Positions 13,330 to 34,604 of a stretch of 64,000 bases of DNA are shown piece after piece. The position numbers and the translations under genes were made by a program. This stretch comes from Gammaproteobacteria bacterium (GTDB taxonomy: Bacteria > Pseudomonadota > Gammaproteobacteria > Magnimaribacterales > D2472), in contig VMDH01000017.1 of NCBI GenBank assembly GCA_008080945.1, positions 271 to 64,270 of the forward strand. The letters run 5' to 3'. A model generated the notes under the pieces. That model did not search any database, was not told where the DNA came from, and saw only the letters and a list, made by a program, of their open reading frames with translations. Within the stretch, counting starts at the first letter, position 1. Every line of letters starts with the position of its first letter.

Positions 13330-14235
13330 ATGAATGTAAAGGGTCTCGAATATATTTTGATTGAAACCACTGATCTTTCAAAATGGGAGGATTATGGATT
13401 GAATGTGTGTGGGTTTATGAAAAATGAAACTGCTTCAAATTCAGAACAAATAGCTTTCAAAATTGATGAATCTCCATTCAGATTTCTTGTTACGAAAGGT
13501 AATTCAGAGCGTTACCTAGCAGGTGGCTTCTTATTGGAGGATGAAAGTGCTGTAGCTGCAGCTCAGCAAGAGCTTCATAATCATGGTGTTGAATGTGTTG
13601 AGCTTGATGAAAATCATAAAGCGGCAAGAAAGATTAGTGGGGGTTTTACATTTCAAGATCCTGCAGGCAATACACTAGAATTTATTTACGGAAGGGAACA
13701 AGACACTTCTTCTTTTGTATCTTCTCAAAACATCTCTGGATTTGTTACTCAAGGGCTTGGATTTGGCCATGTTGTTTTTGCCACCCTAAACATTGAAGAA
13801 ACTCATAATTTCTATACTGAGGTACTTGGCTTTGGTGATTCGGATATTATGGATTTGCAGATGAGCCCCAATCCTGAGGATCCCCCCATGCGTTTATACT
13901 TCATGCATTGTGATAACCCAAGACATCATACAGTTGCTTTTATGCAGGCTCCAACCCCTCCTTCTGGATTAATTCATACAATGGTTGAAGTTCAGAAAGT
14001 TGATGAAGTAGGGCATGCCCTGGACCGAGCACTAAAAAAGGATATTCATATTTCATCTAGCATGGGAAGGCATGTCAATGATGGAATGTTATCTTTTTAC
14101 ATGCAAACTCCATCTGGGTTTGATTTAGAGTATGGATGCGAGGGTATACAACCTAATTGGGAAAGTTTTGAAACCACCCATTCATCGTTGCCTAGTCACT
14201 GGGGCCATAAATTTACACCACCACCTGCAGAATAA
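13330..14235 (+). CDS. type I extradiol (catechol meta-cleavage) dioxygenase, two VOC domains; HsaC/TesB/BphC-like
   Basis: About 300 aa, GFGHVVF, HHTVAF and FDLEYG ligand contexts. SD GGGAGA upstream. Confidence 0.8.
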   Translation: MNVKGLEYILIETTDLSKWEDYGLNVCGFMKNETASNSEQIAFKIDESPFRFLVTKGNSERYLAGGFLLEDESAVAAAQQELHNHGVECVELDENHKAARKISGGFTFQDPAGNTLEFIYGREQDTSSFVSSQNISGFVTQGLGFGHVVFATLNIEETHNFYTEVLGFGDSDIMDLQMSPNPEDPPMRLYFMHCDNPRHHTVAFMQAPTPPSGLIHTMVEVQKVDEVGHALDRALKKDIHISSSMGRHVNDGMLSFYMQTPSGFDLEYGCEGIQPNWESFETTHSSLPSHWGHKFTPPPAE

Positions 14236-15107
14236 TGAACAAAGTTCACACTCTTGATCAATTTATTGCTCAGTTAGAAGATGGCATGACTATTGGTATT
14301 GGAGGTTGGGGCGCTAGAAGAAAGCCAATGGATCTTGTTAGAGCAATTTGTAGATCACCTCTAAAAGATCTAACCATAGTATCTTACGGAGGACCGGATG
14401 TAGGTTTGCTCTGCAGCGAAGGCAAGATCAAGGAGTTAGTCTTTGGGTTTGTATCTCTAGACTTAATACCACTAGAAGCACATTTTCGACAAGCGAGACA
14501 AAATGGAAATCTTAAAAATATAACAGAGCTAGATGAAGGAATGTTGCAATGGGGATTGCGAGCAGCTGCAATGCGACTTCCTTTTCTTCCCACAAAAATT
14601 GGTTTTGGTACAGATATTCTTAAACATAACTCTCATATTAAAACTATTACGTCTCCTTACTCAGACAAACAAGAGTTGGTGGCTATGCCGGCAATCCCTC
14701 TTGATGCAGCCCTGATTCATGTGAATAAAGCAGATAAAAAAGGCAATACCCAAATATTTGGACCCGATCCATTTTTTGATGACCTATTTGCAAGAGCTGC
14801 AACCAATACGTTTGTTTCTTCCGAAAAAATAGTTGATACAGACCAACTTGGCGGAGAACAAATGGCGATATTCAACAGGTTTGAAAGAAACTTTGTTACC
14901 GGTGTAATTGAGTGCCCCGGCGGGGCCCATCCAACATCTTGTGCCCCCGATTATGGTTTTGATCTTGAGCACTTAAAAAACTATTCTGCACAAGTTGAGA
15001 ATTATGCTGAATACAAAAAAGATTTTATAGATGTGAATCCTTCTGCTTATCATGAGGCAGTTGGCGGATTGCAAAAAATACTTTCAATTTCATTACCAAG
15101 ATTTTAA
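14235..15107 (+). CDS. CoA-transferase subunit alpha (IpdA/ScdL1-like)
   Basis: DGMTIGIGGWG..RKPMDLVRAI, family I CoA-transferase A-subunit pattern. TAATG junctions on both sides. Confidence 0.75.
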   Translation: MNKVHTLDQFIAQLEDGMTIGIGGWGARRKPMDLVRAICRSPLKDLTIVSYGGPDVGLLCSEGKIKELVFGFVSLDLIPLEAHFRQARQNGNLKNITELDEGMLQWGLRAAAMRLPFLPTKIGFGTDILKHNSHIKTITSPYSDKQELVAMPAIPLDAALIHVNKADKKGNTQIFGPDPFFDDLFARAATNTFVSSEKIVDTDQLGGEQMAIFNRFERNFVTGVIECPGGAHPTSCAPDYGFDLEHLKNYSAQVENYAEYKKDFIDVNPSAYHEAVGGLQKILSISLPRF

Positions 15108-15844
15108 TGGAAAATTTTAAACTCGCAGATTTATGTATTTCCCAAGCCGCAAAGGTTTGGGTTGATGATGGTGAAATACTTGCTACCGGAATAGGTCTCA
15201 TCCCAAGATTAGCGGCATATTTGTCTAAAATGGCTTTTAACGAAGCTTTAATGGTTACGGATGGTGAAACATATTTAATAGATGAGCCTTTCCCATTAGG
15301 TGTTGATAGAACACTAAAAGTTGAGGGGTACATGAGTTATAGCAGGGTATTTGAGAATCTTTGGGGGGGAGCTCGTCATGCAATGGTTACTCCAACTCAG
15401 ATTGATATGTATGCGCAAATGAACATAAGTTGCATTGGAGACTATGAAATGCCCAAAGTTCAGTTACTTGGTTCGAGAGGTTTTCCAGGGAACTCCATTA
15501 GTCATAAAAATAGTGTTTTTATCCCTGTTCACAGTAAAAAATCTTTTGTAGAAGGTGAGGTACACATGGTATCTAGCCTTGGCTATAAGGAGGATAATCT
15601 TTATGCACCGGAGATAGGAAAAGTGATCACCAACCTTGGAGTTTTTGATTTTAATGGAGATAACCATGCTTTTAGATTACTTTCAGTTCATCCTGGGGTT
15701 GAGGTTCAGGCAATCGAGGAATCTACAGGTTTTGCAGTGGATACCAGTCAATTCACTGAGACAGAGTTGCCATCTCCACAAGAAATAGAGATCATAGAGT
15801 ACTTAGATCCTAAGGGAATGAGACACAATATATTTGGGGGATAG
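15107..15844 (+). CDS. CoA-transferase subunit beta (IpdB/ScdL2-like)
   Basis: Paired with and translationally coupled to the alpha subunit. About 245 aa with LLGSRGFPGN and ..VIT.LGVF.. motifs. Confidence 0.7.
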   Translation: MENFKLADLCISQAAKVWVDDGEILATGIGLIPRLAAYLSKMAFNEALMVTDGETYLIDEPFPLGVDRTLKVEGYMSYSRVFENLWGGARHAMVTPTQIDMYAQMNISCIGDYEMPKVQLLGSRGFPGNSISHKNSVFIPVHSKKSFVEGEVHMVSSLGYKEDNLYAPEIGKVITNLGVFDFNGDNHAFRLLSVHPGVEVQAIEESTGFAVDTSQFTETELPSPQEIEIIEYLDPKGMRHNIFGG

Positions 15845-15846
15845 TT

Positions 15847-16710
15847 ATGCCAAGAGCAAAGCCAACAGTTATCTATAGGAAGCAAGAAGATATTGCTATT
15901 GTTTCTATGAATAGGCCAGAGTACAACAATGCCCAAAATGGAAAAATGACATACGATTTAGATCGTGCCTTTAAAAAAGCAGTTGATGATGATGATATTA
16001 AAGTCATAGTTTTAAAAGGAAACGGCAAGCATTTTTCTGCTGGTCATGATATTGGTACCCCCGGAAGAGATGTAGATAAATCTTACGACAGAAAAACTAT
16101 GTGGTACGACCATACCAACAAGCCCGGGGGAGAATTTTGGTACGTTAGAGAACAAGAAGTTTATTTAAATATGTGCAGACGCTGGAGAGACATACCTAAA
16201 CCCACAATTGCAATGGTTCAGGGAGCATGCGTTGCTGGAGGATGTATGCTTGCTTGGGTCTGTGATCTTATTATTGCATCCGATGATGCGTTTTTTGCTG
16301 ATCCGGTAGTTAGAATGGGTATTCCTGGCGTTGAATACTTTGCTCACCCATATGAGCTTAATCCAAGGATTGCCAAAGAATTCTTATTTTTAGGTGAAAG
16401 AATGTCTTCTACTAGGGCATATGAAATGGGAATGGTTAACCAGGTAGTTTCCAGAGATGAGCTTCAAGATAAAGTTATGGAGGTAGCTAAAAAGATAGCT
16501 GCTATGCCTAGACTGGGACTTACACTTACCAAGCAAGCCATTAATCATGCTGAGGATCTTCAAGGCAAAAGAAATGCAATGGAAGCTGCTTTTGCATGGC
16601 ATCATTTTTCTCATGCTCACAATGATTTGGTGACAGGAAATGTGTTATCAGGTTTTGATGCTAAGAAAATGGCAAAATCTCAAAGACAAAGTAAGTCTAA
16701 GAAAAAGTGA
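15847..16710 (+). CDS. enoyl-CoA hydratase/isomerase (crotonase) family, EchA20/ScdY-like
   Basis: Oxyanion-hole context FSAGHDIG and ACVAGGCMLA. Sits adjacent to the IpdAB-like pair, as in HIP clusters. Confidence 0.7.
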   Translation: MPRAKPTVIYRKQEDIAIVSMNRPEYNNAQNGKMTYDLDRAFKKAVDDDDIKVIVLKGNGKHFSAGHDIGTPGRDVDKSYDRKTMWYDHTNKPGGEFWYVREQEVYLNMCRRWRDIPKPTIAMVQGACVAGGCMLAWVCDLIIASDDAFFADPVVRMGIPGVEYFAHPYELNPRIAKEFLFLGERMSSTRAYEMGMVNQVVSRDELQDKVMEVAKKIAAMPRLGLTLTKQAINHAEDLQGKRNAMEAAFAWHHFSHAHNDLVTGNVLSGFDAKKMAKSQRQSKSKKK

Positions 16711-17768
16711 TCCAAACAGAATTATTTAAGAGGTTAGGCTCTGAGATTCCTGTAATACAAACTGCAATGGGGTGGGTTGCAACCCCCCAATTAGTTGCTG
16801 CTTCAACTCAAGCTGGCGCATTTGGTTTTTTAGCTCTTGCAACTTCAAGCAAAGATGAGGCAATAGCTTCTATAGATGAAACTCTTAGACTTACTGATAA
16901 GCCATTTGGAGTTAATTTACATATGTTCCAACCCGGAGCTGCTGAAATTATTGATTATGTAATTAAGCATCAAATTAGAGCAATTAGTTACTCAAGATCT
17001 CCTGTTCCTGAATACATTTCTAAGCTCAAAGCTGCAGGAGTTCTTTGCATTCCAACAGTTGGAGAGGTAAAACATGCTATTAAAGCTGAATCTCTTGGAG
17101 CTGATGCATTAGTGATTCAAGGGTCTGAAGGCGGTGGTCATACTGGAGAGACTCCTACCAGTCTATTGCTGAGTGAGGTACTTAAATCAGTCAAGATACC
17201 GGTGGTGGCTGCCGGTGGTTTTAGAGATGGGTTTGGTCTAGCCGCAGCCATTGCTTGGGGCGCTTCAGGAATTGCAATGGGAACTCGTTTTATGATGACT
17301 CAAGAAAGCCCCGTGCCTGATTCCACAAAAGAAGCATATCTCTCTTGTAATACCAGTGAGATTAGAGTTACTAAGAAATTCGATGGATTGCCCCACCGAT
17401 TAATATTTAACAAATATATTACATCTTTGGATAAGGCAAGTAGCCCAAGGATTTTTTTGCAAGCACTGGTTTCAGGTTGGAGATATAAGCAACTTTCTCA
17501 AGCATCCTTTAAGGACATTTTTAAAGCATTCTTTGGCATGCTTAAAGGTGATAAATTAACAATAGCTCAAACCATGATGGCGGCTAATAGCCCTGTGATT
17601 ATTCAAAAAGCCATGGTTGAGGGCAAACCCAATAGAGGGGCAATGCCAAGTGGTCAGGTGGCAGGATTAATCGTTGATTTGCCTACATGTGGCGATTTAA
17701 TAGAGCAAATTAAGAATGAATTTTTTATTGCCTCAAAAAATTTTAAGGAGATCTTAGATGAGAGTTGA
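16707..17768 (+). CDS. nitronate monooxygenase (NMO/FabK-like) family flavin oxidoreductase, IpdC-like
   Basis: IQTAMGWVA, GSEGGGHTG and AAGGF.DG..LAAA.AWGA.G..MGTRF motifs. GTGA overlap start. Confidence 0.7.
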   Translation: MIQTELFKRLGSEIPVIQTAMGWVATPQLVAASTQAGAFGFLALATSSKDEAIASIDETLRLTDKPFGVNLHMFQPGAAEIIDYVIKHQIRAISYSRSPVPEYISKLKAAGVLCIPTVGEVKHAIKAESLGADALVIQGSEGGGHTGETPTSLLLSEVLKSVKIPVVAAGGFRDGFGLAAAIAWGASGIAMGTRFMMTQESPVPDSTKEAYLSCNTSEIRVTKKFDGLPHRLIFNKYITSLDKASSPRIFLQALVSGWRYKQLSQASFKDIFKAFFGMLKGDKLTIAQTMMAANSPVIIQKAMVEGKPNRGAMPSGQVAGLIVDLPTCGDLIEQIKNEFFIASKNFKEILDES

Positions 17769-18519
17769 TCTTACCATTAATAATCATATTGCAGAGCTAG
17801 TTTTAAATGCCCCTCCAGTGAATGCCCTGAATTCTGACGAATGGCATGAGCTTGCTGATACGCTGGAACAACTTTCAGATAACAAAGACGTCCATGTATT
17901 ACTAATAAGAGCTCTTGGAAAGGGCTTCTGTGCCGGTGTTGATATAAAGGAATTACAAAAAGATCCAACAAAAATCACAGCTGTTAATGAAGGATGTTGG
18001 AGAGTTGCAAAAGCAATTCATAGCTGCTCTGTACCAGTAATTTCAGCCTGCCATGGGTTTGTTCTTGGAGGTGGCATTCTTATTTCGGGAGCTTCAGATA
18101 TTGTACTAGCCACAGAGGATGCTTTTTTTGGATTACCTGAAATTGATAGAGGGGCATTGGGAGGAGGAGCGCACTTAAGCAGATTATTTCCCCTTCAAGC
18201 TGTGAGAAAAATGATGTTTACTGGTAAACCTATTTCTGCTGAAAGAGCTCTAAGCTATGGCGCAATAGAGTCTATTCATATTGATCAGGATGCATTGTTA
18301 GCTGCTGCTATGGATATTGCAAAAGATATAGCTTCTAAAAGTCCCATTGCTATTCGACTTGCTAAAGAAGCTTTAAATGAGATAGAACCCTCAGATGTAA
18401 ATTTACATTACAAAAAAGAGCAAGCCTTCACCCTAAAATTGTATGAATCGTCAGATTCTCAAGAAGCACGAGATGCCTTTGTTGAGAAGCGTGATGCAGA
18501 TTTCTCAGATGAAAATTAA
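17758..18519 (+). CDS. enoyl-CoA hydratase/isomerase family protein
   Basis: LNAPPVNAL, GKGFCAGVDIKE, GFVLGGG, LPEIDRGALGG. Confidence 0.8.
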   Translation: MRVDLTINNHIAELVLNAPPVNALNSDEWHELADTLEQLSDNKDVHVLLIRALGKGFCAGVDIKELQKDPTKITAVNEGCWRVAKAIHSCSVPVISACHGFVLGGGILISGASDIVLATEDAFFGLPEIDRGALGGGAHLSRLFPLQAVRKMMFTGKPISAERALSYGAIESIHIDQDALLAAAMDIAKDIASKSPIAIRLAKEALNEIEPSDVNLHYKKEQAFTLKLYESSDSQEARDAFVEKRDADFSDEN

Positions 18520-19657
18520 ATTTACACAAGAACAGTCAACTTTTCGTGAAGAAGTCAGGTCTTGGATGAAGAGTAACGTTCCTTCACAGCCCTTGCATTC
18601 GCTGGATACGTCTAAAGGCTTTGAAGAGCATAGGGCTTGGGAAAAAACCCTCAATGAAGGGAATTGGTCCATGGTTACTTGGCCAAAAGAATATGGCGGA
18701 AGAGGCCTAGATTTGATTGAGTGGTTAATATTTGAAGAAGAGTATTACCGTGCAAAAGCTCCCACTAGAGTTAATCAAAATGGTGTTTTTTTGCTTGGTC
18801 CTACTCTTATGGAATACGGCTCAGAGCACCAAAAAGAAAGGTTTTTGAGTGCTATGGCGAAGGGTGAGCATATTTGGGCACAAGGTTGGTCTGAGCCAGG
18901 TGCGGGTAGCGATATGGCTGCAATAAGATCTACAGCAATAAGGGAAGAGAATAAATTTATTATCAATGGTCAGAAAACTTGGTCTTCAAGAGCAACTTAT
19001 GCAGATTGGACCTTTGGTTTGTTTAGATCTGATTCAGAATCATCAAGGCATCATGGGCTCTCTTTTATTCTTGTGCCCTTAGATGCTCCTGGAGTCACTG
19101 TTAGGCCCATCCCTCAGCTAGATGGAGAGCCAGGATTTGCAGAAATATTTTTCGATAATGTAGAGGTTCCCATAGAGAATTTAATTGGTGAAGAGGGTGC
19201 AGGCTGGAGTATTGCTATGGCTACCGCAGGGTTTGAGAGAGGCTTGATGTTAAGATCGCCCGCAAGATTTCAAGAAACTGCAGCACACTTAATCCGCATA
19301 GCTAAACAAGAATCTAATTTAGCTCCATCTATAAAAACTGCCTTAATTGATTGCTGGATAAAGGCCGAAGCCTACGCGCTAAATATTTATCAAACAGCAT
19401 CAAAACTGCAAGCCGGTAAGAAAATTGGCCCAGAATCTAGCCTTGGAAAAATTTTCTGGTCAACTTTGGACTACGAAATGCACTCTACAGCATTGAAAAT
19501 CTTAGGAACTCTTTCAGAGCTAAAGAACGAGGAAGCTTCCAATGCTGCAGCATGGATTAAGGGCTTTATGTTTTCTCTAGCTGGACCGATCTATGCAGGA
19601 ACAAATGAAATCCAAAAAAATATTGTTGCCGAAAGGCTTTTAGGGTTGCCGAGATAA
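18509..19657 (+). CDS. acyl-CoA dehydrogenase, alpha-type subunit of a heteromeric pair
   Basis: WPKEYGGRG, QGWSEPGAGSD, C-terminal YAGTNEIQKNIVAERLLGLP. ATG at 18509 (11-nt overlap) is preferred to the track start at 18443. Confidence 0.8.
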   Translation: MKIKFTQEQSTFREEVRSWMKSNVPSQPLHSLDTSKGFEEHRAWEKTLNEGNWSMVTWPKEYGGRGLDLIEWLIFEEEYYRAKAPTRVNQNGVFLLGPTLMEYGSEHQKERFLSAMAKGEHIWAQGWSEPGAGSDMAAIRSTAIREENKFIINGQKTWSSRATYADWTFGLFRSDSESSRHHGLSFILVPLDAPGVTVRPIPQLDGEPGFAEIFFDNVEVPIENLIGEEGAGWSIAMATAGFERGLMLRSPARFQETAAHLIRIAKQESNLAPSIKTALIDCWIKAEAYALNIYQTASKLQAGKKIGPESSLGKIFWSTLDYEMHSTALKILGTLSELKNEEASNAAAWIKGFMFSLAGPIYAGTNEIQKNIVAERLLGLPR

Positions 19658-20694
19658 TGAACTTTACTTTTGATAATGAATTAGAATCATTTGTTTCGAC
19701 AATCAATGATTTTATCCAGAAAGATTACACGCCCCAACATATAAGAAATGCCTGGAGTTCTGGAGATCCATTCTCTAACGAACATTGGAAGTCGATGATC
19801 AATTTAGGAGTAAGCCAAATGATTCTAGATGAAAAATTTCAAGGCATGGGCTTATCTCTTGATGAGGCAATTTTAGTTTATGAGGAATTAGCCTATGGAG
19901 GGGTCATAGAGCCTATCATTGAGCAAAGCATCCTTATCAATAATTTAGCTCATGAGTTTCCCCAGGGACTTCAGGATTTAATTGGAGAACGTCTTATTGA
20001 TCAGTATGTTGCTTTAACGCACCCATCTTCCCCATTCGTAAATCACTTAAGTCATGCATCTGGGCTTTTAAGTATTCAAAATAATGATATTTCTTTTGTT
20101 GAGTTAGAAGGTATCGAGAGTGAGTTGTTAGAATCTAATGACCCTTCACGAGTAGTTTCAAGCATTAAGAGCATAAAAAACTCTCACTCCTTTAAATTAG
20201 ATCCTTCATTAGAGAGAAAGATTGTCTCATCAGGCAAGCTTGTGTCAGCGCTAACAATAATAGGTTTATCTAGAAGATGCTTAGATATTTCCTCAGAGTA
20301 TGTTAAGACCAGAGAACAGTTTGGAAAACCTATCGGGTCTTTTCAGGCAGTCAAGCATATGCTTTCTGATATTGCAGTGAAAATAGAATTTGCAAAGGCT
20401 GCAATTTATCGAGCTGCTAATTCTATAATTTCAGATCACCCCTTACATGAATTACATTCTAATGTAGCAAAATATTTAGCTAATCAGGCCGGTGAAATTG
20501 CTACCAAGAATTCTATTCAAGCTCATGGGGCAATGGGATATACCTGGGAAGTTGATCTGCATATTTTTATGAGAAGAATTTGGGCTTTCAATTCTTTATG
20601 GGCAACACAAAGTGAAATTGAATTCGAAATAGAAAGCTTTCTTCATGAAAATACCGAAAAGCTAGGAGCAACATTTACATTTACTGAGGATTGA
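19657..20694 (+). CDS. acyl-CoA dehydrogenase family, beta-type (shorter) subunit
   Basis: REQFGKPIGSFQAVKH and IQAHGAMGYTWE motifs. Lacks the C-terminal xGTxEI segment. TAATG coupling to the alpha gene. Confidence 0.75.
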   Translation: MNFTFDNELESFVSTINDFIQKDYTPQHIRNAWSSGDPFSNEHWKSMINLGVSQMILDEKFQGMGLSLDEAILVYEELAYGGVIEPIIEQSILINNLAHEFPQGLQDLIGERLIDQYVALTHPSSPFVNHLSHASGLLSIQNNDISFVELEGIESELLESNDPSRVVSSIKSIKNSHSFKLDPSLERKIVSSGKLVSALTIIGLSRRCLDISSEYVKTREQFGKPIGSFQAVKHMLSDIAVKIEFAKAAIYRAANSIISDHPLHELHSNVAKYLANQAGEIATKNSIQAHGAMGYTWEVDLHIFMRRIWAFNSLWATQSEIEFEIESFLHENTEKLGATFTFTED

Positions 20695-20695: not shown

Positions 20696-21850
20696 ATGAC
20701 AGAAGCTTATATTATTGAGGCAAAGAGAACTCCAGTTGGAAGAAAGAAAGGCTCATTAGCATCAGTTCATCCGGCTGATCTAGGCGGCCATATTTTAAAG
20801 TCTATTTTTGAGGACATTCAATTTGATCCAGGTTTAATTGATGATGTTATTTTTGGTTGCGTGGATACAGTGGGCCCTCAAGCTGGCGATATTGCCAGAA
20901 CATGCTGGTTAGCTGGTGGTTTGCCTTTGCATGTTCCTGGAACAACTGTGGATAGACAGTGTGGCTCTTCTCAGCAAGCTGTCCACTTTGCTGCCCAGGC
21001 AGTCATGTCTGGAACTTGCGATGCTGTTATCGCTGGGGGAGTTCAGAACATGAATCTAGTTCCGATATCTTATGCAATGATTGCAGGCAAAGAGCTAGGT
21101 TTTGATGATCCATTCAGGGGCTCTAAAGGTTGGATGGAGAGATTTGGAGATATTGAAGTTAGTCAATTTAATTCAGCGAACATGATTGCTCAAAAGTGGG
21201 GAATTACCAGAGAGGAAATGGAGATCTTTGCTCTAAATAGTCATGAAAAAGCTCTGCAAGCAATAGATGCTGGAGTTTTCAAAGATGAAATAGTGCCATT
21301 TGGAGACTTTGATACTGATGAAACTCCAAGAAGAGGAACTTCTCTGGAAAAGATGTCTGAATTAATCCCCCTAATAGAGGGCCACAACATTACTGCAGCA
21401 ATGGCATCACAGAATGCTGATGCTTCTGCAGCATTACTTATAGTTTCTGAAAGAATGCTGAAAGAGCATAACCTCACTCCTCTGGTTAAAATTAAACATA
21501 TCAGCGTATTAGCAGACGACCCAATTTGGATGCTAACGGCACCAATTCCTGCAACTAAAGCAGCATTAATGAAATCAGGCGTTAAGGCATCTGAAATTGG
21601 TGTGGTTGAGATCAATGAAGCTTTTGCTTCAGTAGTGATGGCTTGGAATAAAGAAATAGATATTGATCCTAAGCAAGTCAATATTCATGGGGGAGCTATT
21701 GCATTAGGTCATCCTCTCGGTGCCACAGGTGCTAGACTTATGACCACCCTAGTACATACAATGAAAAGAGACAAATTAAAGTATGGCCTGCAAACTATGT
21801 GTGAGGGGGGTGGTCAAGCTAACGTTACTATCTTAGAAAATTGTGAATAA
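20696..21850 (+). CDS. acetyl-CoA C-acyltransferase (thiolase), FadA6-like
   Basis: VDRQCGSSQQA active-site Cys, NIHGGAIALGHPLGATG and CEGGGQA motifs. Confidence 0.9.
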   Translation: MTEAYIIEAKRTPVGRKKGSLASVHPADLGGHILKSIFEDIQFDPGLIDDVIFGCVDTVGPQAGDIARTCWLAGGLPLHVPGTTVDRQCGSSQQAVHFAAQAVMSGTCDAVIAGGVQNMNLVPISYAMIAGKELGFDDPFRGSKGWMERFGDIEVSQFNSANMIAQKWGITREEMEIFALNSHEKALQAIDAGVFKDEIVPFGDFDTDETPRRGTSLEKMSELIPLIEGHNITAAMASQNADASAALLIVSERMLKEHNLTPLVKIKHISVLADDPIWMLTAPIPATKAALMKSGVKASEIGVVEINEAFASVVMAWNKEIDIDPKQVNIHGGAIALGHPLGATGARLMTTLVHTMKRDKLKYGLQTMCEGGGQANVTILENCE

Positions 21851-27053: not shown

Positions 27054-27054
27054 T

Positions 27055-27978
27055 ATGAAAAATATTAAATGTGCAATTATTGGATCTGGCAACATAGGTA
27101 CAGATCTTATGTACAAGATACTAAGAAATTCTAATTTACTCGACTGCCAAGCAGTGATCGGCATCGATCCAGAATCGGAAGGACTTGCCCTAGCCAAAGA
27201 CGAGGGTGTGTACATTGCTTCTCAAGGTCTGGCAGCATTTGCTGAAACAGATACATTTAAAGAAATAGAGATTTTTTTTGATGCAACTTCTGCTTATGCT
27301 CATGCAGAGCACCACAGCATTGTTTCAGAAGCAGGCAAACAACTCATTGATCTAACGCCTGCTGCAATTGGTCCTTATTGCATCCCAGTAGTTAATCTTG
27401 ATGAGCACCTCCAAGAAAACAATGTCAACTTAGTAACCTGTGGAGGCCAGGCAACCATTCCAATGGTTGCAGCAGTCAATCAAGTTTCTAAAGTTAATTA
27501 TGCTGAAATAGTTGCCTCTGTTTCTTCTAAGTCAGCCGGTCCTGGTACGCGAGCAAACATAGATGAATTTACCAAAACTACTGCGCTGGGTTTGGAAAAG
27601 GTTGGAGGAGCTACTAAGGCCAAGGCCATAATAGTATTGAATCCAGCAGAGCCTCCTTTATTAATGAGAAACACAGTTTTTACTTTATCTGAAGATACTG
27701 ATACCAAAATTATTGAAAAGAGTATTGAAGAGATGGTGCAAAGAGTGCAGGCCTATGTACCTGGTTACAGGCTCAAGCAAAAGGTGCAATTTGAAAGGTT
27801 TGGTTCAAATAATCCTGTAAGAATACCAGGCTACGGTGAATTTGAAGGAGTTAAATCTTCTATCTTTCTTGAGGTAGAAGGAGAGGGACACTATTTACCT
27901 AAGTACGCTGGCAACCTAGATATCATGACATCGGCAGCTCTTGGAACAGCCGAGGCGTTGGCAAGGAAAAGACTTTGA
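27055..27978 (+). CDS. acetaldehyde dehydrogenase (acetylating); HsaG/TesF/DmpF-like
   Basis: [23 protein letters not shown] active-site Cys, GNLDIMT. Confidence 0.9.
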
Positions 27979-27980
27979 AT

Positions 27981-28991
27981 ATGAAGAAAATCTATATTCA
28001 AGATGTAACCTTGCGAGATGGTATGCATGCCATTCGTCATCAATATGGAATTGAACATGTTAAATCCATTGCTAAAGCATTGGATGTTGCTGGTGTTGAT
28101 GCTTTGGAAGTAGCTCATGGTGACGGCTTATCGGGATCGTCATTTAACTATGGTTTTGGTGCTCATACAGATAAAGAATGGATTGCAGCAGTAGCGGAAG
28201 TTATTGAAAACATAGTATTAACAACTTTAATTTTGCCGGGTATTGCTGTTAAAGAAGATTTAGATTGGGCTTACAGCATGGGAGTTAGATCAGTGAGAGT
28301 TGCAACACATTGCACCGAAGCTGATGTATCCAAGCAGCATATTGAGTATGCAAGAAATTTAGGTATGGATACCATTGGATTTTTAATGATGTCTCATATG
28401 AACAGTCCAAAAAATTTAGCTCATCAAGCTAAACTGATGGAAGATTATGGTGCAAATTGTGTGTATGTAGTCGATTCTGGAGGGGCCTTAAATATGTCTG
28501 ATGTTGCAGATCGATTCAAGGCATTCAAAGATATTTTAGACTCTAAGACCCAAACAGGAATTCATGCACATCACAATTTATCATTTGGCGTTGCAAACTC
28601 TATTGTGGCTGTTGAAAATGGAGCGGATAGAGTAGATGCCAGTTTAGCAGGCATGGGTGCAGGAGCGGGCAATGCTCCTCTAGAAGTATTTGTTGCTGCC
28701 GCTGATCGAATGGGGTGGAATCATGGCACAGATCTATTTACGCTTATGGATGCAGCAGAAGACCTAGTCAGACCTCTTCAAGATCGACCAGTAAGAGTAG
28801 ATAAAGAAACACTAACTTTAGGATATGCCGGAGTATATTCTTCCTTCTTGCGGCATGCTGAAGCAGCAGCAGAAACATATGGGCTGGATACCAGAGAAAT
28901 ATTGGTTGAACTTGGAGAGCGTAAGATGGTTGGTGGCCAGGAAGACATGATCGTTGATGTGGCTCTAGACTTATTAAAAAAGAAATCCTAA
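27981..28991 (+). CDS. dmpG: 4-hydroxy-2-oxovalerate aldolase; HsaF/TesG/DmpG-like
   Basis: [25 protein letters not shown] and [11 protein letters not shown] motifs. Confidence 0.9.
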
Positions 28992-28994: not shown

Positions 28995-29849
28995 ATGAAA
29001 ATTGGAATGACCTTGCCAGTTATGGAGAGAGATCTTTCTAGAAATATATTACTTGATTGGATGCAAAAAATTGATCATGGACCATGGTCAAGCATAGCTT
29101 TGGGGGAGAGAATTGTTTTTCACAACCCAGAATTTATAACTTTACTTGGAGGGGTTGCAGCAGCAACAAATAAAACTGAGATCATTGCAACTATTTCTGT
29201 CGCAACGATGCACAACCCAGTTTTACTGGCTAAACAAATAGCCACGCTAGATATGTTATCGGAAGGTCGATTTACTCTTGGCGTGGGAGTTGGGGGGAGA
29301 GAGGAAGACTATCTAGCAATAGGAGCTGATTACTCCAAAAGGCGCTGGGCAAATGTTGGAGAAAATATTAATACTATGAAATCTATTTGGGCTGGCGAGC
29401 ATAATCTTCACATAGGACCCAAGCCCTATACTTCTGGAGGGCCTCAGATTCTTGCAGGAGCTCTAGGTCCCAAAGCATTGGAGATTAGTTCAACCTTTGC
29501 AGATGGTATCGCCGGTTTTTCTTTTAATGCAGATATCAATGAAATTAAAGAATCTTTTGATTTAACCAAGAAATTTTTTAAACCTAATCCACGGTTAATA
29601 ACAAGCTTTTGGTTTGCTATTGAGCCCAATGGTAGGGTTCAACTTAAATCTCATTTGCAAACCTATTTAGCTTGGATGGGTGAAGAAATAGCTGAAATGT
29701 TATCTGATTCTGCTGGCTTTTGTGGCTCGGTTTCTGAATTGAAAGATTTTCTTGAGCAAATTTCAAATATTGGCGCATCCGATGTTTTACTTGTTCCAAC
29801 TAGCAAAGATGTTAAACAGCTTAAAATGCTTGAAGAGATAATTTTTTAA
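28995..29849 (+). CDS. LLM-class (luciferase-like) flavin-dependent oxidoreductase
   Basis: LDMLSEGRFTLGVGVGG..EDY pattern and about 285 aa TIM-barrel length. Confidence 0.65.
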   Translation: MKIGMTLPVMERDLSRNILLDWMQKIDHGPWSSIALGERIVFHNPEFITLLGGVAAATNKTEIIATISVATMHNPVLLAKQIATLDMLSEGRFTLGVGVGGREEDYLAIGADYSKRRWANVGENINTMKSIWAGEHNLHIGPKPYTSGGPQILAGALGPKALEISSTFADGIAGFSFNADINEIKESFDLTKKFFKPNPRLITSFWFAIEPNGRVQLKSHLQTYLAWMGEEIAEMLSDSAGFCGSVSELKDFLEQISNIGASDVLLVPTSKDVKQLKMLEEIIF

Positions 29850-29901
29850 TAAGATTTAACACTAATTAATATCTTGTTAGAATCTCTTAGGGAGATAATT
29901 C

Positions 29902-30333
29902 ATGACTGATAATTCAATCTTAGAAGCACCGGAGCTACCAGAGCAAAAAGACCCTAGTTCTAGTGATTTTCCAGATGGGTGGCATTATGTCGCAAATTCC
30001 AAAGACTTAGAGAAATCTAAGGCAATAGAGGTTATTAATTTTGCAACCCAAATAGTAGTTTGGAGAGGTTCTGATGAAAAGCTCTATGCTTTGGATATGT
30101 ATTGTAAGCACATGGGCGCATCCCTAGGTTGTGGAGAAGTTGATCAGAATGGTATTCGTTGTCCATTTCATGCTTGGAGATGGAATGGCTCCGGCGATTG
30201 CGATGACATTCCTTATGCAAAAAGAGTACCAGACAAAGCAAAAACAAGAAGCTGGACTCCATATGAGAAAGATGGAAAGATTTATGTTTGGTTTGATAGA
30301 AATGGCAACGAACCAGACTTTGATAGTATTTAA
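29902..30333 (+). CDS. stand-alone Rieske [2Fe-2S] domain protein, KshA N-terminal-domain-like
   Basis: CKHMG ... CPFHAWRW (CxH..CxxH) ligands. FPDGWHYV start and IYVWFD..NEPDF end match the full Rieske domain of KshA-type oxygenases. SD GGGAGA. Confidence 0.85.
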   Translation: MTDNSILEAPELPEQKDPSSSDFPDGWHYVANSKDLEKSKAIEVINFATQIVVWRGSDEKLYALDMYCKHMGASLGCGEVDQNGIRCPFHAWRWNGSGDCDDIPYAKRVPDKAKTRSWTPYEKDGKIYVWFDRNGNEPDFDSI

Positions 30334-30346: not shown

Positions 30347-31192
30347 ATGAGTCATTTACCAGATAGATTTCCAAGAGGTTGGTTTGTATTAGGTCACCAA
30401 CGTGAATTCTTGCCAAATGCAACTAAAGCTATATATGCATTTAATAGAAAAATTAGCGTCACCAGAGATAGTAACGGAGAGATAACGGTTGAGACCGGAG
30501 ATAGCCATCCTTGGCCAGTATTAGAGATCAATCAAATGGTATTAATTTGGCATGATATTGAAAAACAAGAGCCAGACTTCTATCCAAATAAAATCGAGGC
30601 TTGTTACTCTGAGGAATGGTCGGATTATTCTATGGCTAGCTTTTTGGTAAAAAATAATTGTAGAGAGCTGATAGATAATATGGCAGATAAGGGTCATTTT
30701 GGTCCAGTTCATCAGGCGCCATTCGAAGGATTTTGGAATGAAGCAAAAGACCATACCTATACTCAAGAAATGACAGCTAATAGTCCAATACTTGGAGGAG
30801 ATTTATTTTCTCAAGCAACCTATGAAGGTCCGGCTTATATGACAACCTATATGAGTGCTGTGCAGGATGGAAACACTGTTGAGAGTAGGCTTTTAGTTTC
30901 CCACTTACCTTTAACCATGACTTCTTTTCAAATCAATTTTGGTGTGATGGTAAAAAAAGTTCCAGGTATGAGCAAAGAGGAAGAGGATGCCTTTGTTCAG
31001 GGTTATGTTGATGCAAATAATTATGCCTTTGGTCAGGACGTTGCAATCTGGGAAAACAAGATCTATATACCTGATCCTGTAGTTTGCGATGGTGATGGCC
31101 CATTGCATAAGCTAAGAAAATGGTACGGTCAGTTTCTAGTGGATAGAGCCGATATTCCCAAAGGTCTTGATATGGAAAAAAGGGAATTTTAA
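30347..31192 (+). CDS. KshA-like oxygenase catalytic (mononuclear non-heme Fe) subunit with vestigial, ligand-less Rieske region
   Basis: NCRELIDNMADKGHFGPVH (D-x2-H-x4-H) and FGQDVAIWE (Fe-ligand Asp context). The N-terminus FPRGWFVLG...LIWHD..QEPDF is Rieske-like but has no Cys/His ligands. SD GAGGAG. Confidence 0.75.
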   Translation: MSHLPDRFPRGWFVLGHQREFLPNATKAIYAFNRKISVTRDSNGEITVETGDSHPWPVLEINQMVLIWHDIEKQEPDFYPNKIEACYSEEWSDYSMASFLVKNNCRELIDNMADKGHFGPVHQAPFEGFWNEAKDHTYTQEMTANSPILGGDLFSQATYEGPAYMTTYMSAVQDGNTVESRLLVSHLPLTMTSFQINFGVMVKKVPGMSKEEEDAFVQGYVDANNYAFGQDVAIWENKIYIPDPVVCDGDGPLHKLRKWYGQFLVDRADIPKGLDMEKREF

Positions 31193-31201
31193 AGATTTCT
31201 T

Positions 31202-31666
31202 TTGAAAAATAATCTCGATAATCTCGACATTCAGATTCTAGATCTATTAGAGGAAGATGGTAGAGCATCTGCTAAGTCTATTGCACTCAAACTAGGTATT
31301 ACTGAAGTTACGGCGAGCAAAAGAATATCAAAAATTATAAAGGGCGATCATTGTAAAGTGGTTGCCATTGCAGATTTTGAAAAATGCGGATTTGAATTTT
31401 TACTACCCATGGGTATCAGAGTTCATGGCAAACAACTTGAACAAGTTGCAGAGAAAATCTCATCCTTAGATGCAGTTTATAGTGTAAGCGCAGTTAGCGG
31501 TATTCAAGATTTAGAAATTTTATGTGCTACTAAAACCCTTGATGAAACTGTTGAGCTGCTTGATGTTACTTTGCCAGCTATTAAAGGCATTAAGAGTATA
31601 ACTCCTGCGATTTCATCAAAGGTATATAAATTTCAAACCGATTGGGCCCCGCTTGGAAATGATTGA
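31202..31666 (+). CDS. Lrp/AsnC family transcriptional regulator
   Basis: LD..D..IL.LL..DGR.S...IA..LG.TE..V..R wHTH pattern plus C-terminal RAM-like domain. TTG start. Confidence 0.75.
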   Translation: MKNNLDNLDIQILDLLEEDGRASAKSIALKLGITEVTASKRISKIIKGDHCKVVAIADFEKCGFEFLLPMGIRVHGKQLEQVAEKISSLDAVYSVSAVSGIQDLEILCATKTLDETVELLDVTLPAIKGIKSITPAISSKVYKFQTDWAPLGND

Positions 31667-32120
31667 TCATATTGATTCAAAGATCATTGCTTTGCTTGGT
31701 AAAGATGCAAGAATGCCGAACAATAAGATTGCAAAAGCAATCAATGTATCTGAAGGAACTGTCAGAAATCGCATTGCGAAGTTGCTCAAAAAAAACATCA
31801 TCAACATTTCTTTGATCAGGAATGTCAATCAGATGGATAATCCAGGTATTGCTTTCGTAGGCCTGGATGTTGAGGCTTCTTTGAAAGATAAAATTGCAAT
31901 GCAATTAAGCAAGATGCCAGAAGTGAGGTTTGTGTCCTCCTTAATGGGTAGGCATGATTTAATGGCTTTTGTTTTAGCAGATAATGCTACCGAACTTTCT
32001 CATATCCTCTATCAGAAAATTGCATCGCTTGAAGGCGTGCAGTTTACTGAATCCAGCATCGGATTAAAGTATTTCAAATACGACTACAAATGGGGAAGGT
32101 TATTAAGTGAAGCAAAATAA
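31659..32120 (+). CDS. Lrp/AsnC family transcriptional regulator (second, paired)
   Basis: IDSKIIALLGKDARMPNNKIAKAINVSEGTVRNRIAKL wHTH. ATG at 31659 gives an 8-nt overlap with the first regulator gene. Confidence 0.8.
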   Translation: MIDHIDSKIIALLGKDARMPNNKIAKAINVSEGTVRNRIAKLLKKNIINISLIRNVNQMDNPGIAFVGLDVEASLKDKIAMQLSKMPEVRFVSSLMGRHDLMAFVLADNATELSHILYQKIASLEGVQFTESSIGLKYFKYDYKWGRLLSEAK

Positions 32121-33624
32121 CTTTAGCACTATCCCAGAGGTTGTCGCGTATCGAGCAGAAAATCATCCGGACAGCATTGCATTCAAAAAAGACAATCAAG
32201 AGATTAGTTATTTTGATCTCGATCTGTATTCTTCCAACTTAGCACATACCTTATTGAGGAAAGGCCTATCCTACCAAGAGGCAGTAGCAATTTGGGCTCC
32301 AAACTCCATTGAATGGATTGTTGCGGCTATTGCAACTCATAAAGCAGGAGGAAAGATAGTTCCTATTAATACTCGAATGAAAGGTCCAGAGGCTGAATAC
32401 ATCCTGAATGCTTCTCATGCTAAATTTCTTTTTACCGTAAATAATTTTCTTGGCCAAGATTTCGGAGAGATTGCCAGGCAACAACATGTGCCTGATATTA
32501 AAGAAATCATTAATCTAGATAAAGACAATATCTTGCTTACAGATAGATTAGATCAAGCATCTGAGCTACCCACAATAAACCCCAAAGATATAGCAGACAT
32601 AATTTTCACCTCAGGAACCACTGGTAAACCAAAAGGTGTGATGGTTTCCCATGCCCAAAATATTAGAGTTTTTGATTATTGGTCTACTTACATCGGATTA
32701 ACCCAACAAGATAGATACCTTATAGTGAACCCCTTTTTTCATACCTTTGGTTATAAGGCTGGCTGGCTTGCTTGTTTGTTAAGAGGCTGCATTGGATTCC
32801 CATTAGATGTTTTTGATCCCAAAGTAGTTTTATCAAAAATTAATGATGAATCGATAACAATGTTACCGGGCCCACCTACTTTATATCAATCTATCATGCA
32901 ATCTGATGCTTTGTCAGAAAGCAACATCTCATCTTTAAGGCTTGGAGTTACTGGAGCAGCAGCAATACCGGTTCAATTAATTCATGATATGCGGAATATT
33001 CTAGGTTTTGAAACAATCATCACTGCATACGGCCTTACTGAATCTACCGGAGTAGTTACTATGTGTACTCCAAGTGATGCAGCAGAGATTATTGCTAATA
33101 CCTCAGGCAAAGCAATTGAAGGAGTGGAGGTCAAATGCGTTGCAATAGATGGAAATGAAGCAGCTTCTTATGAACAAGGAGAAATATTAGTTAGAGGATT
33201 TAATGTAATGGAGGGTTATTTTGAGGATCCAAAAGCAACCCAAGATGCCATCAATGAAGACGGTTGGCTTCATACTGGAGATATTGGATTTTTAGATGAA
33301 CATGGCTATTTAAAGATCACAGATAGGGTTAAAGACATGTTTATTGTTGGTGGTTTTAATGCTTATCCTGCTGAAATAGAAAATATCATGGCATCACATC
33401 ACGCTGTTTCTCAAGTTGCCGTGATTGGTGTGCCTGATGAAAGGATGGGCGAGGTCGCAAAAGCATTTGTAATTCTTAAATCTAAAGCCTCAATTAGTGA
33501 AGAAGAATTAATTGTTTGGTGCAAGGAGAACATGGCAAATTATAAAGTTCCTAGAAGTATTGAATTTGTAGAATCTCTACCAACCAATGCAGCAGGCAAA
33601 ATTATGAAATTTGAACTTAGATAA
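32107..33624 (+). CDS. acyl-CoA synthetase (AMP-forming), FadD3/ScdA-like
   Basis: AMP-binding motif FTSGTTGKPKGV, YGLTE, TGDIG, and the C-terminal PRSIEFV..LP.NAAGKI.K segment. Confidence 0.85.
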   Translation: MKQNNFSTIPEVVAYRAENHPDSIAFKKDNQEISYFDLDLYSSNLAHTLLRKGLSYQEAVAIWAPNSIEWIVAAIATHKAGGKIVPINTRMKGPEAEYILNASHAKFLFTVNNFLGQDFGEIARQQHVPDIKEIINLDKDNILLTDRLDQASELPTINPKDIADIIFTSGTTGKPKGVMVSHAQNIRVFDYWSTYIGLTQQDRYLIVNPFFHTFGYKAGWLACLLRGCIGFPLDVFDPKVVLSKINDESITMLPGPPTLYQSIMQSDALSESNISSLRLGVTGAAAIPVQLIHDMRNILGFETIITAYGLTESTGVVTMCTPSDAAEIIANTSGKAIEGVEVKCVAIDGNEAASYEQGEILVRGFNVMEGYFEDPKATQDAINEDGWLHTGDIGFLDEHGYLKITDRVKDMFIVGGFNAYPAEIENIMASHHAVSQVAVIGVPDERMGEVAKAFVILKSKASISEEELIVWCKENMANYKVPRSIEFVESLPTNAAGKIMKFELR

Positions 33625-34604
33625 TGAAAGTTATTATTTCCTCCATCACCCAACATTTATTTGAAAAACAATTTGAAGAATTTGAATCACAACATCAAAT
33701 TAATTTAGAAAAAATTATTCTTGATCCTCAAAATCCAAAAAATCCAGATTGGAGCGAGGTACCAGAGAGCGATGCATTTTTTTTAACCTATGAATTCATG
33801 TTTGCTGTTCGCGATGATAAATCACTAATTCCTGACTTGCTTTCAGTTTGCAAAAAAACAAAATTTGTACAAACAGGTTTGGCTGGGATGGATTCAGATT
33901 TTGCTCAGCAACTCCTCAAGATACCAAATCTTAGGGTAGCAAATGCTCGAGGTGTTCATGCCATTCCAATAGCAAACTATGTATTTGCTCAAGCCCTTAG
34001 GTGGACAAAGCGCATTGATGAGCATATTGATATGCAATCAAAAAAAAATTGGGCAGAGCTTGGAGGAGATGGAGAATTAACTGGTAAAACAATGATAATT
34101 TGGGGGTGTGGTGGAATTGGCCAAGAAATTGCAAGAATAGCAAAAGCTTTTGGAATGAATGTTGTGGGTGTTAGAAGATCAGTATTTACAAATCCAAACG
34201 TTGACCACGCTATCAGCCATGAGGATGTTTTTGATTGGTTACCATTTGCTGACTTTGTAGTGCTAGCATTGCCAGATTCTTCTGAAACAAGAGATATTGT
34301 TGATGCTCGTGTGCTTGATCAGTGCTCTCCACAATCTATGTTAATCAATGTGGGGAGGGGGACTGCTATTGATGAAGATGCTTTAGCACATGCATTGAAT
34401 TCAAAGCAGATTGCTTGTGCTGCCCTAGATACAACTAAAATAGAGCCACTGCCCGAAGATTCACCTTTATGGACAGCTCATAACTGTTTTATAAGCGCCC
34501 ATGATTCAGCACATTCATTGCAGGCAGTTCCAAGAACTTTTGCATTATTTTTACACAATCTTTCTAATTTGCTACATAAAAAAACTCTAGAAAATATTTG
34601 CTAA
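33624..34604 (+). CDS. D-isomer-specific 2-hydroxyacid dehydrogenase family, NAD-binding
   Basis: GCGGIGQEIARIAKAFGMNVVGVRR dinucleotide fold, INVGRG, ...HDSAHS. Confidence 0.7.
   Translation: MKVIISSITQHLFEKQFEEFESQHQINLEKIILDPQNPKNPDWSEVPESDAFFLTYEFMFAVRDDKSLIPDLLSVCKKTKFVQTGLAGMDSDFAQQLLKIPNLRVANARGVHAIPIANYVFAQALRWTKRIDEHIDMQSKKNWAELGGDGELTGKTMIIWGCGGIGQEIARIAKAFGMNVVGVRRSVFTNPNVDHAISHEDVFDWLPFADFVVLALPDSSETRDIVDARVLDQCSPQSMLINVGRGTAIDEDALAHALNSKQIACAALDTTKIEPLPEDSPLWTAHNCFISAHDSAHSLQAVPRTFALFLHNLSNLLHKKTLENIC

Follow-up and report, generated by a model that had tools for sequence, protein, structure and literature searches.

A probable steroid-nucleus degradation cluster in a SAR86 genome, with a KshA-type oxygenase apparently encoded by two genes

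The subject of this report is a stretch of 64,000 nucleotides (hereafter the window; positions 271 to 64,270 of contig VMDH01000017.1, assembly GCA_008080945.1) and, within it, the genes found at positions 13330-34604. This region is filled by 24 open reading frames (ORFs), all on the + strand, which lie exactly where a first-pass annotation had placed them; the coding share is 99.5%, neighbouring genes mostly overlap or are at most 3 nucleotides (nt) apart, and the widest gap inside the cluster, 52 nt, is located 5' of the gene for a Rieske protein. The same annotation had called the DNA very AT-rich, which is an overstatement: with a GC content of 38.7% for the cluster and 37.3% for the whole window, it is moderately AT-rich. 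The annotation's description of the host as a small-genome marine gammaproteobacterium was correct, the host belonging to SAR86 (Magnimaribacterales). From the sequence we regard it as probable that these SAR86 genes form an operon-like cluster covering most of the aerobic 9,10-seco pathway of steroid-nucleus degradation.

All 24 products were scanned with Pfam and NCBIfam and compared with solved structures through PDB searches, by which every family name proposed in the first pass was reproduced. The genes are as follows, with the evidence used for each of them in brackets (SDR, short-chain dehydrogenase/reductase; aa, amino acids):

13330..14235, + strand: extradiol (type I) dioxygenase, HsaC/TesB-like (NCBIfam HsaC/BphC, PDB HsaC 2ZI8)
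14235..15107, + strand: IpdA-like alpha subunit of a ring-opening hydrolase with CoA-transferase fold (PDB 6CO6/6CON IpdA)
15107..15844, + strand: IpdB-like beta subunit (PDB 6CON_B, 6CO6_B; no Pfam match)
15847..16710, + strand: crotonase, candidate EchA20/ScdY-type ring hydrolase (NCBIfam PRK08290)
16707..17768, + strand: NMO-family flavoenzyme, candidate IpdC/ScdK-type enoyl reductase (Pfam NMO, 231 bits; role from context)
17758..18519, + strand: second crotonase (NCBIfam PRK07938)
18509..19657, + strand: acyl-CoA dehydrogenase alpha subunit, probable start given, ORF opening at 18443 (all three acyl-CoA dehydrogenase domains)
19657..20694, + strand: acyl-CoA dehydrogenase beta subunit, IpdE2-like, without the middle domain (NCBIfam IpdE2 as top model, Pfam N and C domains)
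20696..21850, + strand: thiolase, candidate FadA6/ScdF (NCBIfam PRK07801)
21843..22625, + strand: SDR, candidate IpdF-type ketoreductase (NCBIfam PRK07831; putative role)
22625..23314, + strand: EthD-like protein (Pfam EthD, 29.8 bits)
23338..24111, + strand: second SDR (Pfam adh_short, 162 bits)
24113..25465, + strand: cytochrome P450 of CYP120/CYP51/CYP136 type (PDB CYP120A1, 2VE3, 173 bits)
25465..26277, + strand: meta-cleavage-product hydrolase, HsaD/BphD-like (NCBIfam and PDB HsaD/BphD)
26274..27053, + strand: 2-oxopent-4-enoate/2-hydroxyhexadienoate hydratase, HsaE-type (TIGR03220)
27046..27978, + strand: acylating aldehyde dehydrogenase, HsaG-type (TIGR03215)
27975..28991, + strand: 4-hydroxy-2-oxoacid aldolase, HsaF-type (TIGR03217)
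28995..29849, + strand: luciferase-like (LLM) oxidoreductase (Pfam Bac_luciferase, 94 bits)
29902..30333, + strand: stand-alone KshA-type Rieske [2Fe-2S] protein, 143 aa (alignment to KshA5, 4QDC)
30347..31192, + strand: KshA-like catalytic subunit with cluster-less Rieske-core domain, 281 aa (KshA alignment, AlphaFold2 model)
31202..31666, + strand: Lrp/AsnC-family regulator 1 (Pfam HTH_AsnC-type and AsnC_trans_reg)
31653..32120, + strand: Lrp/AsnC-family regulator 2 (Pfam HTH_AsnC-type and AsnC_trans_reg)
32107..33624, + strand: FadD3-family acyl-CoA ligase, candidate HIP-CoA ligase (NCBIfam NF005801)
33624..34604, + strand: D-2-hydroxyacid dehydrogenase-family protein (Pfam 2-Hacid_dh_C, 155 bits)

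The module predicted to degrade rings C and D by way of the bicyclic acid HIP is the strongest part of the assignment and is well supported by sequence matches. The IpdA-like alpha subunit scores 249 bits (E 3.5e-73) to IpdA (6CO6_A) against 74 bits (9e-20) to glutaconate CoA-transferase, and the IpdB-like beta subunit 151 bits (E 4e-43) to 6CON_B, with 7e-40 to 6CO6_B, against 53 bits (4e-13), the solved IpdAB references being ring hydrolases from R. jostii and M. tuberculosis; a comparison with generic glutaconate CoA-transferases had been proposed as a check in the first pass, and by score it comes out clearly on the side of IpdAB. The beta subunit contains no SENG/ENG-type glutamate, its aligned segment SRGFPGNS resembling GSPGN of M. 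tuberculosis IpdB, and in the alpha subunit the glutamate of a DEGM motif, aligned to MDEGM of 6CO6_A, is conserved. IpdAB is reportedly set apart from true CoA-transferases by precisely such features, namely the missing beta SENG glutamate and an essential alpha Glu105 (RHA1 numbering).

Several other enzymes of this module exceed curated cut-offs: the ligase that of NF005801, the 'FadD3 family acyl-CoA ligase' (669.1 bits, cut-off 657, runner-up model 432 bits), the first crotonase that of PRK08290 (450 bits, cut-off 280), the second crotonase that of PRK07938 (318 bits, cut-off 260), the thiolase that of PRK07801 (626.6 bits, cut-off 591) and the first SDR that of PRK07831 (396 bits, cut-off 336). 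Among solved structures the first crotonase is closest to the mycobacterial enoyl-CoA hydratases 3OME (227 bits) and 3T3W (220 bits), the next match reaching 133 bits. The two acyl-CoA dehydrogenase genes overlap by 1 nt, and judging by their domains the pair has the steroid-type heteromeric (IpdE1-IpdE2) architecture, with N, M and C domains in the alpha subunit and N and C domains only in the beta subunit, from which the FAD-binding middle domain is missing. IpdE2 is the top NCBIfam model of the beta subunit, yet with 122.8 bits it stays below the equivalog cut-off of 450, and its PDB matches, which include Tcur3481 and ChsE5, are weak. As profile matches to the alpha subunit begin at residue 23-28 of the ORF opening at 18443, its true start is probably 18509. 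For the NMO flavoenzyme the sole NCBIfam match is FabK, under the cut-off, and we infer an IpdC-type role by gene context only. The IpdAB matches, the FadD3-family cut-off and the architecture of the dehydrogenase pair together bear out the HIP-degradation gene set that had been claimed in the first pass.

The oxygenase, too, is among the solid assignments. In KshA (2ZYL, 4QCK, 4QDC, 4QDF), which the SAR86 pair matches in sequence, in predicted fold and in the His-His-Asp ligands of the iron, the Rieske cluster and the catalytic iron are carried by one polypeptide, whereas here the Rieske [2Fe-2S] domain and the KshA_C domain sit on two, the cluster on a separate protein of 143 aa and the catalytic domain on a protein of 281 aa with a cluster-less remnant of the Rieske domain. 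The product of the Rieske ORF (29902-30333) aligns over its whole length to KshA residues 24-146 (4QDC, E 1.5e-37) and carries the ligand motifs CKH (CxH) and CPFH, which are invariant in 34 sequences. That it might be an ordinary Rieske ferredoxin was considered and rejected, as the ferredoxin CarAc is matched with 2e-4 only; the value for NdmA is 3e-10. The product of the catalytic ORF (30347-31192) matches two stretches of KshA, residues 24-68 and 120-356, and retains the complete catalytic domain together with the outer Rieske-domain strands, while about 50 residues with the Cys/His cluster-binding loops are missing; compared with fused relatives (342-373 aa, about 40% identity) this appears as a clean deletion of just the cluster-loop segment. 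Its iron ligands H117, H122 and D231 (two His and one Asp) are invariant in 30 sequences, as is a DNMAD motif. The AlphaFold2 model of the 281-aa protein has a mean pLDDT (predicted local distance difference test) of 81, exceeding 90 in the N-terminal beta domain, and a Foldseek search with it gave a template-modelling (TM) score of 0.90 to KshA (4QCK, 4QDF) and at most 0.69 to other Rieske oxygenases. Strong matches of both oxygenase genes among solved structures are to KshA only. The first pass had spoken of a split KshA-like oxygenase, and this was right as regards the two ORFs and the KshA type; it is not, however, one gene cut in two, since each ORF contains its own copy of the Rieske-domain core.

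Conservation was scanned with one genome per species, and synteny was judged within 10-kb flanks, i.e. from the thiolase onward, the upstream half of the cluster lying outside. The two-gene form of KshA was found in 35 species-level genomes, in 33 of them with 76-87% identity of the catalytic protein and in the remaining 2 with 54%. The 33, among them SAR86E and CP097973.1, a complete genome of 1.33 Mb, all have the same order: thiolase, SDR, EthD-like, SDR, P450, hydrolase, hydratase, aldehyde dehydrogenase, aldolase, LLM, Rieske, KshA_C, (Lrp, Lrp), ligase, (2-hydroxyacid dehydrogenase), thrS, the Lrp/AsnC genes being missing from some SAR86 loci and the 2-hydroxyacid dehydrogenase following the ligase in most. 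Protein identity across these syntenic loci is 55-87% for most genes; the EthD-like protein is conserved in position, with only 27-50% identity outside the closest relatives of the window. At the SAR86E locus identity is 59-87% from the second SDR to the ligase and 50% for the 2-hydroxyacid dehydrogenase, and an exact copy of the FadD3-like protein is present on four contigs, including the metagenome-assembled genome GCA_038146185.1. Since the order from thiolase to 2-hydroxyacid dehydrogenase recurs in 33 other species genomes, chance is not an issue, and the conserved gene order next to thrS in these genomes means that part of SAR86 has the cluster as a stable trait passed on by vertical inheritance. 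A recent horizontal island was considered as well; there is no sign of one, because the GC content of the cluster is close to that of the window and the place next to thrS is kept across SAR86.

The two distant genomes (54% identity in KshA_C), which are also from marine gammaproteobacteria, have a shorter array consisting of SDR, EthD-like, hydratase, aldehyde dehydrogenase, aldolase, Rieske, KshA_C, ligase and 2-hydroxyacid dehydrogenase; the second SDR, the P450, the meta-cleavage-product hydrolase, the LLM and the Lrp genes are not found at that place. In this clade only 2 nt separate the Rieske stop codon from the KshA_C start.

Steroid catabolism in SAR86 is already known as a genome-based prediction. 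Bergstrand et al. 2016 (mBio, PMC4810484) describe a RefSeq screen for at least six of eight key nucleus-degrading enzymes, KshA and HsaC among them, and count SAR86E and other SAR86 genomes among the putative steroid degraders with a 'testosterone/cholate' pathway, and Ramfelt et al. 2024 (ISME J, PMC11582366) report several genomes of the SAR86 'Suzuki' family with almost all enzymes for the conversion of androstenedione-like compounds into HIP and 2-hydroxyhexadienoate. Table S5 of the latter places kstD, kshA, hsaA, hsaC, fadD3, tesI, fadE26 and an hcaD-type reductase in the 'Suzuki' genera G01-G03, in which fadD19 is reported too; a mean of 1.6-2 kshA copies is tabulated, and a search of the table for kshB found no match. 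The inference of steroid-core degradation made in the first pass is supported by the present analysis and is right but not new, because both studies had predicted it for SAR86. As SAR86E, one of the putative degraders of Bergstrand et al., carries the syntenic cluster, the published prediction and the present cluster concern the same lineage and evidently the same locus.

The published surveys establish presence by KEGG orthology (KO) or reciprocal BLAST, whereas what is added here is a gene-by-gene anatomy, in which solid assignments (IpdAB, the FadD3 family, the KshA-type oxygenase, the lower meta-cleavage enzymes) can be told from soft ones (HsaC, HsaD, P450 and accessory proteins); gene order, individual HIP genes, Lrp regulators, the P450 type and a two-gene kshA do not occur in the text and tables consulted. 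The apparently new detail is the oxygenase as a conserved two-gene system. Its two genes are counted as two copies in KO-based surveys and may be missed by length or domain filters, and because IMG names both ORFs 'kshA subunit A', the mean of 1.6-2 kshA copies in the Ramfelt table is probably due to the two halves being counted separately. According to the same paper, SAR86 makes up several percent of surface-ocean bacteria (PMC11582366). If SAR86 indeed mineralises sterol rings, it would be a major seawater sink for a refractory lipid class, a consequence already in the literature as a genome-based prediction.

The A/B-ring assignments are supported less sharply by sequence than the HIP module. 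HsaC, HsaD and HsaEFG together with KshA had been taken in the first pass as markers of A/B-ring cleavage; the HsaC-like and HsaD-like proteins remain under their cut-offs, and the hydrolase is at least as close to BphD as to HsaD. In the PDB, HsaC of M. tuberculosis (2ZI8) is the best match of the dioxygenase with 212 bits, BphC following with 166 bits. The lower meta-cleavage trio is present in full, with the aldehyde dehydrogenase (TIGR03215, 451 bits, cut-off 282) and the aldolase (TIGR03217, 573 bits, cut-off 286) above their cut-offs and the hydratase (TIGR03220, 369 bits, cut-off 409) just short of it. The P450 has CYP120A1 (2VE3, 173 bits) as its nearest solved structure, followed by CYP51, and is not of the CYP125/142 type; its named relatives, with 40-45% identity and from marine Cellvibrionales-type genomes, are called 'putative P450 136', others are unnamed marine proteins, and the homologue search gave no pointer to a substrate.

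A number of observations weigh against reading the whole region as a steroid pathway. On NCBIfam the dioxygenase scores 257.8 bits to HsaC (cut-off 450) and 259.6 bits to BphC, and the hydrolase 159 bits to HsaD (cut-off 400) and 145 bits to BphD, all of them under cut-off, and in the PDB the hydrolase has BphD (149 bits) slightly ahead of HsaD (130 bits), so that by its scores it is a meta-cleavage-product hydrolase roughly equidistant from both. PRK08290, PRK07801 and PRK07831 have generic model names, and their products are only candidate counterparts of EchA20 (Rv3550), FadA6 (Rv3556c) and IpdF (the SDR of the KstR2 regulon), respectively. The EthD-like protein, the second SDR, the CYP120/136-like P450, the LLM and the 2-hydroxyacid dehydrogenase are conserved and have no place in the canonical pathway. 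Finally, kstD, kshB and hsaAB were not found in the 64-kb window, nor did they appear past its end, where contigs stop within 4 kb and add one more NMO gene and two ORFs without annotation, and of the ORFs of the window that were scanned, none was recognised as a reductase (KshB-like or other) or a ferredoxin serving the oxygenase or the P450.

A pathway may be proposed in which every step is inferred from homology and gene context. Side-chain oxidation and KstD/TesI, encoded elsewhere in the genome, would yield a 3-ketosteroid, which would then be 9-alpha-hydroxylated by the two-protein KshA-like oxygenase, its 143-aa protein providing the [2Fe-2S] cluster, its 281-aa protein the mononuclear iron and a gene outside the window the reductase; this hydroxylation would lead to opening of ring B and aromatisation of ring A. 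The resulting phenol would be converted into a catechol by HsaAB (hsaA is reported elsewhere in such genomes) or possibly by the P450 of the cluster, after which the HsaC-like dioxygenase would cleave ring A and the HsaD-like hydrolase would free HIP and a dienoate, the latter presumably being turned into pyruvate and acyl-CoA by hydratase, aldolase and aldehyde dehydrogenase. HIP would be activated by the FadD3-type ligase, its side chain and rings processed by the heteromeric acyl-CoA dehydrogenase, the crotonases, the SDRs and the NMO reductase, rings D and C opened hydrolytically by the EchA20-type crotonase and IpdAB, and acyl-CoA units released by the FadA6-type thiolase. Regulation, which in the model organisms depends on TetR or LuxR proteins, is probably exerted here by the two Lrp/AsnC proteins.

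One alternative, which we consider unlikely, is that the substrate is not a steroid but some other alicyclic or polycyclic compound degraded via a HIP-like bicyclic acid (other terpenoids, hopanoid-like compounds or carboxyl-rich alicyclic matter), the steroid names merely reflecting the nearest characterised relatives. The A-ring enzymes, which are not clearly of the steroid type, would fit such a substrate, as would a P450 of the CYP120/CYP51/CYP136 group instead of the sterol side-chain CYP125/142 and the EthD-like protein, LLM and 2-hydroxyacid dehydrogenase outside the canonical pathway. On the other hand, the matches of IpdAB, of the FadD3-family ligase and of the crotonase and thiolase (candidate EchA20 and FadA6) are specifically to steroid-linked families and reach or exceed curated cut-offs, and the oxygenase matches only KshA. 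We know of no non-steroid substrate of IpdAB-type hydrolases, which also speaks for a steroid.

It is quite unlikely, in our estimation, that the cluster serves only for scavenging what other microbes release from partial steroid degradation (seco-phenols, HIP), without any attack on intact sterols. The small size of SAR86 genomes, such as the complete one of 1.33 Mb, would agree with such a life style, and so would a window without kstD, hsaAB, kshB and side-chain genes, but a KshA-type oxygenase acts on the intact ring system, kstD, tesI, hsaA, fadD19 and fadE26 are reported for the same SAR86 genera by Ramfelt et al. (PMC11582366), and the screen of Bergstrand et al. (PMC4810484) demanded at least six of eight key nucleus enzymes.

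The next question concerns the oxygenase itself, which could be a decaying or artefactual gene (frameshift or pseudogene) rather than a working enzyme of two subunits. A catalytic subunit of a Rieske oxygenase without its cluster is very unusual, and cluster-less KshA_C proteins of other lineages occur without an adjacent Rieske gene and may therefore have another function or none. The arrangement of the genes, however, makes decay very unlikely. The same two ORFs recur in the 35 species-level genomes; in every SAR86 genome a stop codon closes the Rieske ORF, followed by a spacer of 2-22 nt or a short overlap, mostly with GGAG, and then by the catalytic ATG, and all three relative frames of the two ORFs occur among species. 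In the window, too, the catalytic ORF has its own GGAG ribosome-binding site and ATG. The cluster ligands and H117, H122 and D231 are invariant, the catalytic protein keeps the identities given above within SAR86 and in the distant clade, and the cluster-less domain is the one modelled with pLDDT above 90. A sequencing error or simple frameshift is excluded by the stop codon, the variable spacer and the three frames, and a programmed frameshift was likewise rejected, as both ORFs are intact and the second has Rieske-core strands of its own.

Returning to a functional pair, the two ORFs share two weak collinear segments on either side of the deleted part, and the pair is therefore best explained, as far as sequences can tell, by an ancestral kshA that was duplicated in tandem and then underwent reciprocal loss. 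In KshA trimers the position by the iron site is occupied by the Rieske domain of the neighbouring subunit. On balance we are slightly inclined to believe that SAR86 has a two-polypeptide ring-B-opening oxygenase which arose by duplication and reciprocal decay of kshA into a Rieske-only copy and a catalytic copy with a cluster-less remnant, and that this is the second Rieske oxygenase of such a kind after NdmCDE, with another architecture. NdmCDE, the N7-demethylase of Pseudomonas putida CBB5 (PMC4408171), in which the catalytic NdmC is without a Rieske cluster and receives electrons from the cluster of another polypeptide, is the closest precedent for the two-gene KshA of SAR86. It differs in that the reductase NdmD carries the Rieske domain as a fusion and the GST-like protein NdmE is needed as well, whereas in SAR86 the Rieske protein is free-standing and encoded immediately upstream, and the cluster has no GST-like gene; the protein family is also another one, as the value of only 3e-10 between NdmA and the SAR86 Rieske protein indicates. 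No description of a split KshA or of a stand-alone KshA-type Rieske protein was found in the limited literature collection searched. The two-gene form bears on the ways in which Rieske oxygenases can be assembled.

A wider search for KshA_C among 1.8 billion representative proteins returned cluster-less proteins outside SAR86 as well, with 23-44% identity to the protein of the window and most of them with the iron-binding motif; at the two loci fetched, no Rieske gene was present within 6 kb. Because of these findings, cluster-less KshA may extend beyond SAR86, with an electron donor that is not always encoded next to it, and the proteins may be signs of a broader class of KshA-like enzymes, so far unrecognised, that draw on external electron donors. 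One of these loci contains meta-cleavage lower-pathway genes and a transporter of the MMPL/sterol-sensing-domain type.

An ordinary biphenyl/phenylpropionate meta-cleavage cluster beside generic fatty-acid beta-oxidation genes is extremely improbable, for although the BphC/BphD models score about like HsaC/HsaD and the lower-pathway trio is common to all meta-cleavage pathways, there is no Bph-type ring-hydroxylating dioxygenase alpha/beta pair or dihydrodiol dehydrogenase, the IpdAB, FadD3-family and KshA-type matches are specific, and all genes form one conserved array.

In comparison with known steroid degraders, a homologue of each enzyme type encoded by the HIP genes of the KstR2 regulon in M. 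tuberculosis and R. jostii RHA1 (fadD3, ipdE1-E2, ipdF, ipdC, echA20, ipdAB, fadA6) is present in SAR86, but the place of the TetR regulator of that system is taken by the two Lrp/AsnC genes. Unlike the actinobacterial clusters, the SAR86 array merges C/D- and A/B-ring genes in one direction and includes the EthD-like, LLM, P450 and 2-hydroxyacid dehydrogenase genes. The tes/scd mega-cluster of Comamonas testosteroni (TesB, TesD, TesEFG, ScdA, ScdC1C2, ScdK, ScdL1L2, ScdY, ScdF) encodes the proteobacterial version of the same pathway, and it is to this 'testosterone/cholate' type that Bergstrand et al. (PMC4810484) assign SAR86; the SAR86 array differs from it in being far more compact (21 kb), in having no TesA1A2 and TesH in the window and in its two-gene KshA.

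As to the setting, the 5' flank of the cluster consists of the housekeeping genes purL, alaS, aspartate kinase, dihydroorotase and hflX, followed by thioesterase, SDR and TM2 genes and a divergent gene for a protein with metallo-beta-lactamase (MBL) fold, and the 3' flank of two ORFs without annotation, a DUF4440 protein, an FAD monooxygenase and then thrS, beyond which metY, ccm genes, an SMC-like gene, zipA, ligA and mnmC are found. A scan of the cluster for promoters and terminators found 30 and 9 sites, respectively, where shuffled sequence gave 54 and 15, and is uninformative on operon structure; the best promoter-like site lies at 29856-29883, before the Rieske gene.

Some of the neighbouring genes deserve mention. 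The group-A FAD monooxygenase at 36742-37884 (+), 2 kb past the cluster, resembles 3-hydroxybenzoate 6-monooxygenase/salicylate hydroxylase (193 bits, below cut-off) and is a conceivable phenol hydroxylase, but probably not a conserved member of the cluster, given the 29-55% identity at that position in other SAR86 loci. Just 5' of the cluster and in the same orientation, at 11143-12416 (+), a 4HBT-type thioesterase and an SDR are encoded, set off from it by the TM2 gene and the divergent MBL-fold gene; the top model of this SDR is mycolate reductase, and it has weak matches to 7-alpha/7-beta-hydroxysteroid dehydrogenases. At 58962-63033 an MBL-fold alkyl-sulfatase (Lactamase_B, Alkyl_sulf_dimr and Alkyl_sulf_C) is encoded beside a second acyl-CoA dehydrogenase alpha/beta pair on the minus strand, the beta subunit of which has IpdE2 as its best model (169 bits, under cut-off), with the further NMO-family gene lying just past the window end; that these are additional genes for steroids or sterol sulfates is speculative.

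Two further observations concern genes of other functions. The HflX ORF at 9823-10779 (-), with 318 aa, matches only model positions 93-350 of 351, the N-terminal part being missing from the listed ORF, which reflects either a different upstream start or frame or a real truncation. The SMC-like protein encoded at 48236-50419 (+), before zipA and ligA, has 727 aa and matches the bacterial SMC model (about 1180 positions) at 1-362 and 718-1163, with Pfam SMC_N spanning the protein and no hinge domain, which suggests an SMC that has no hinge and a shortened coiled coil.

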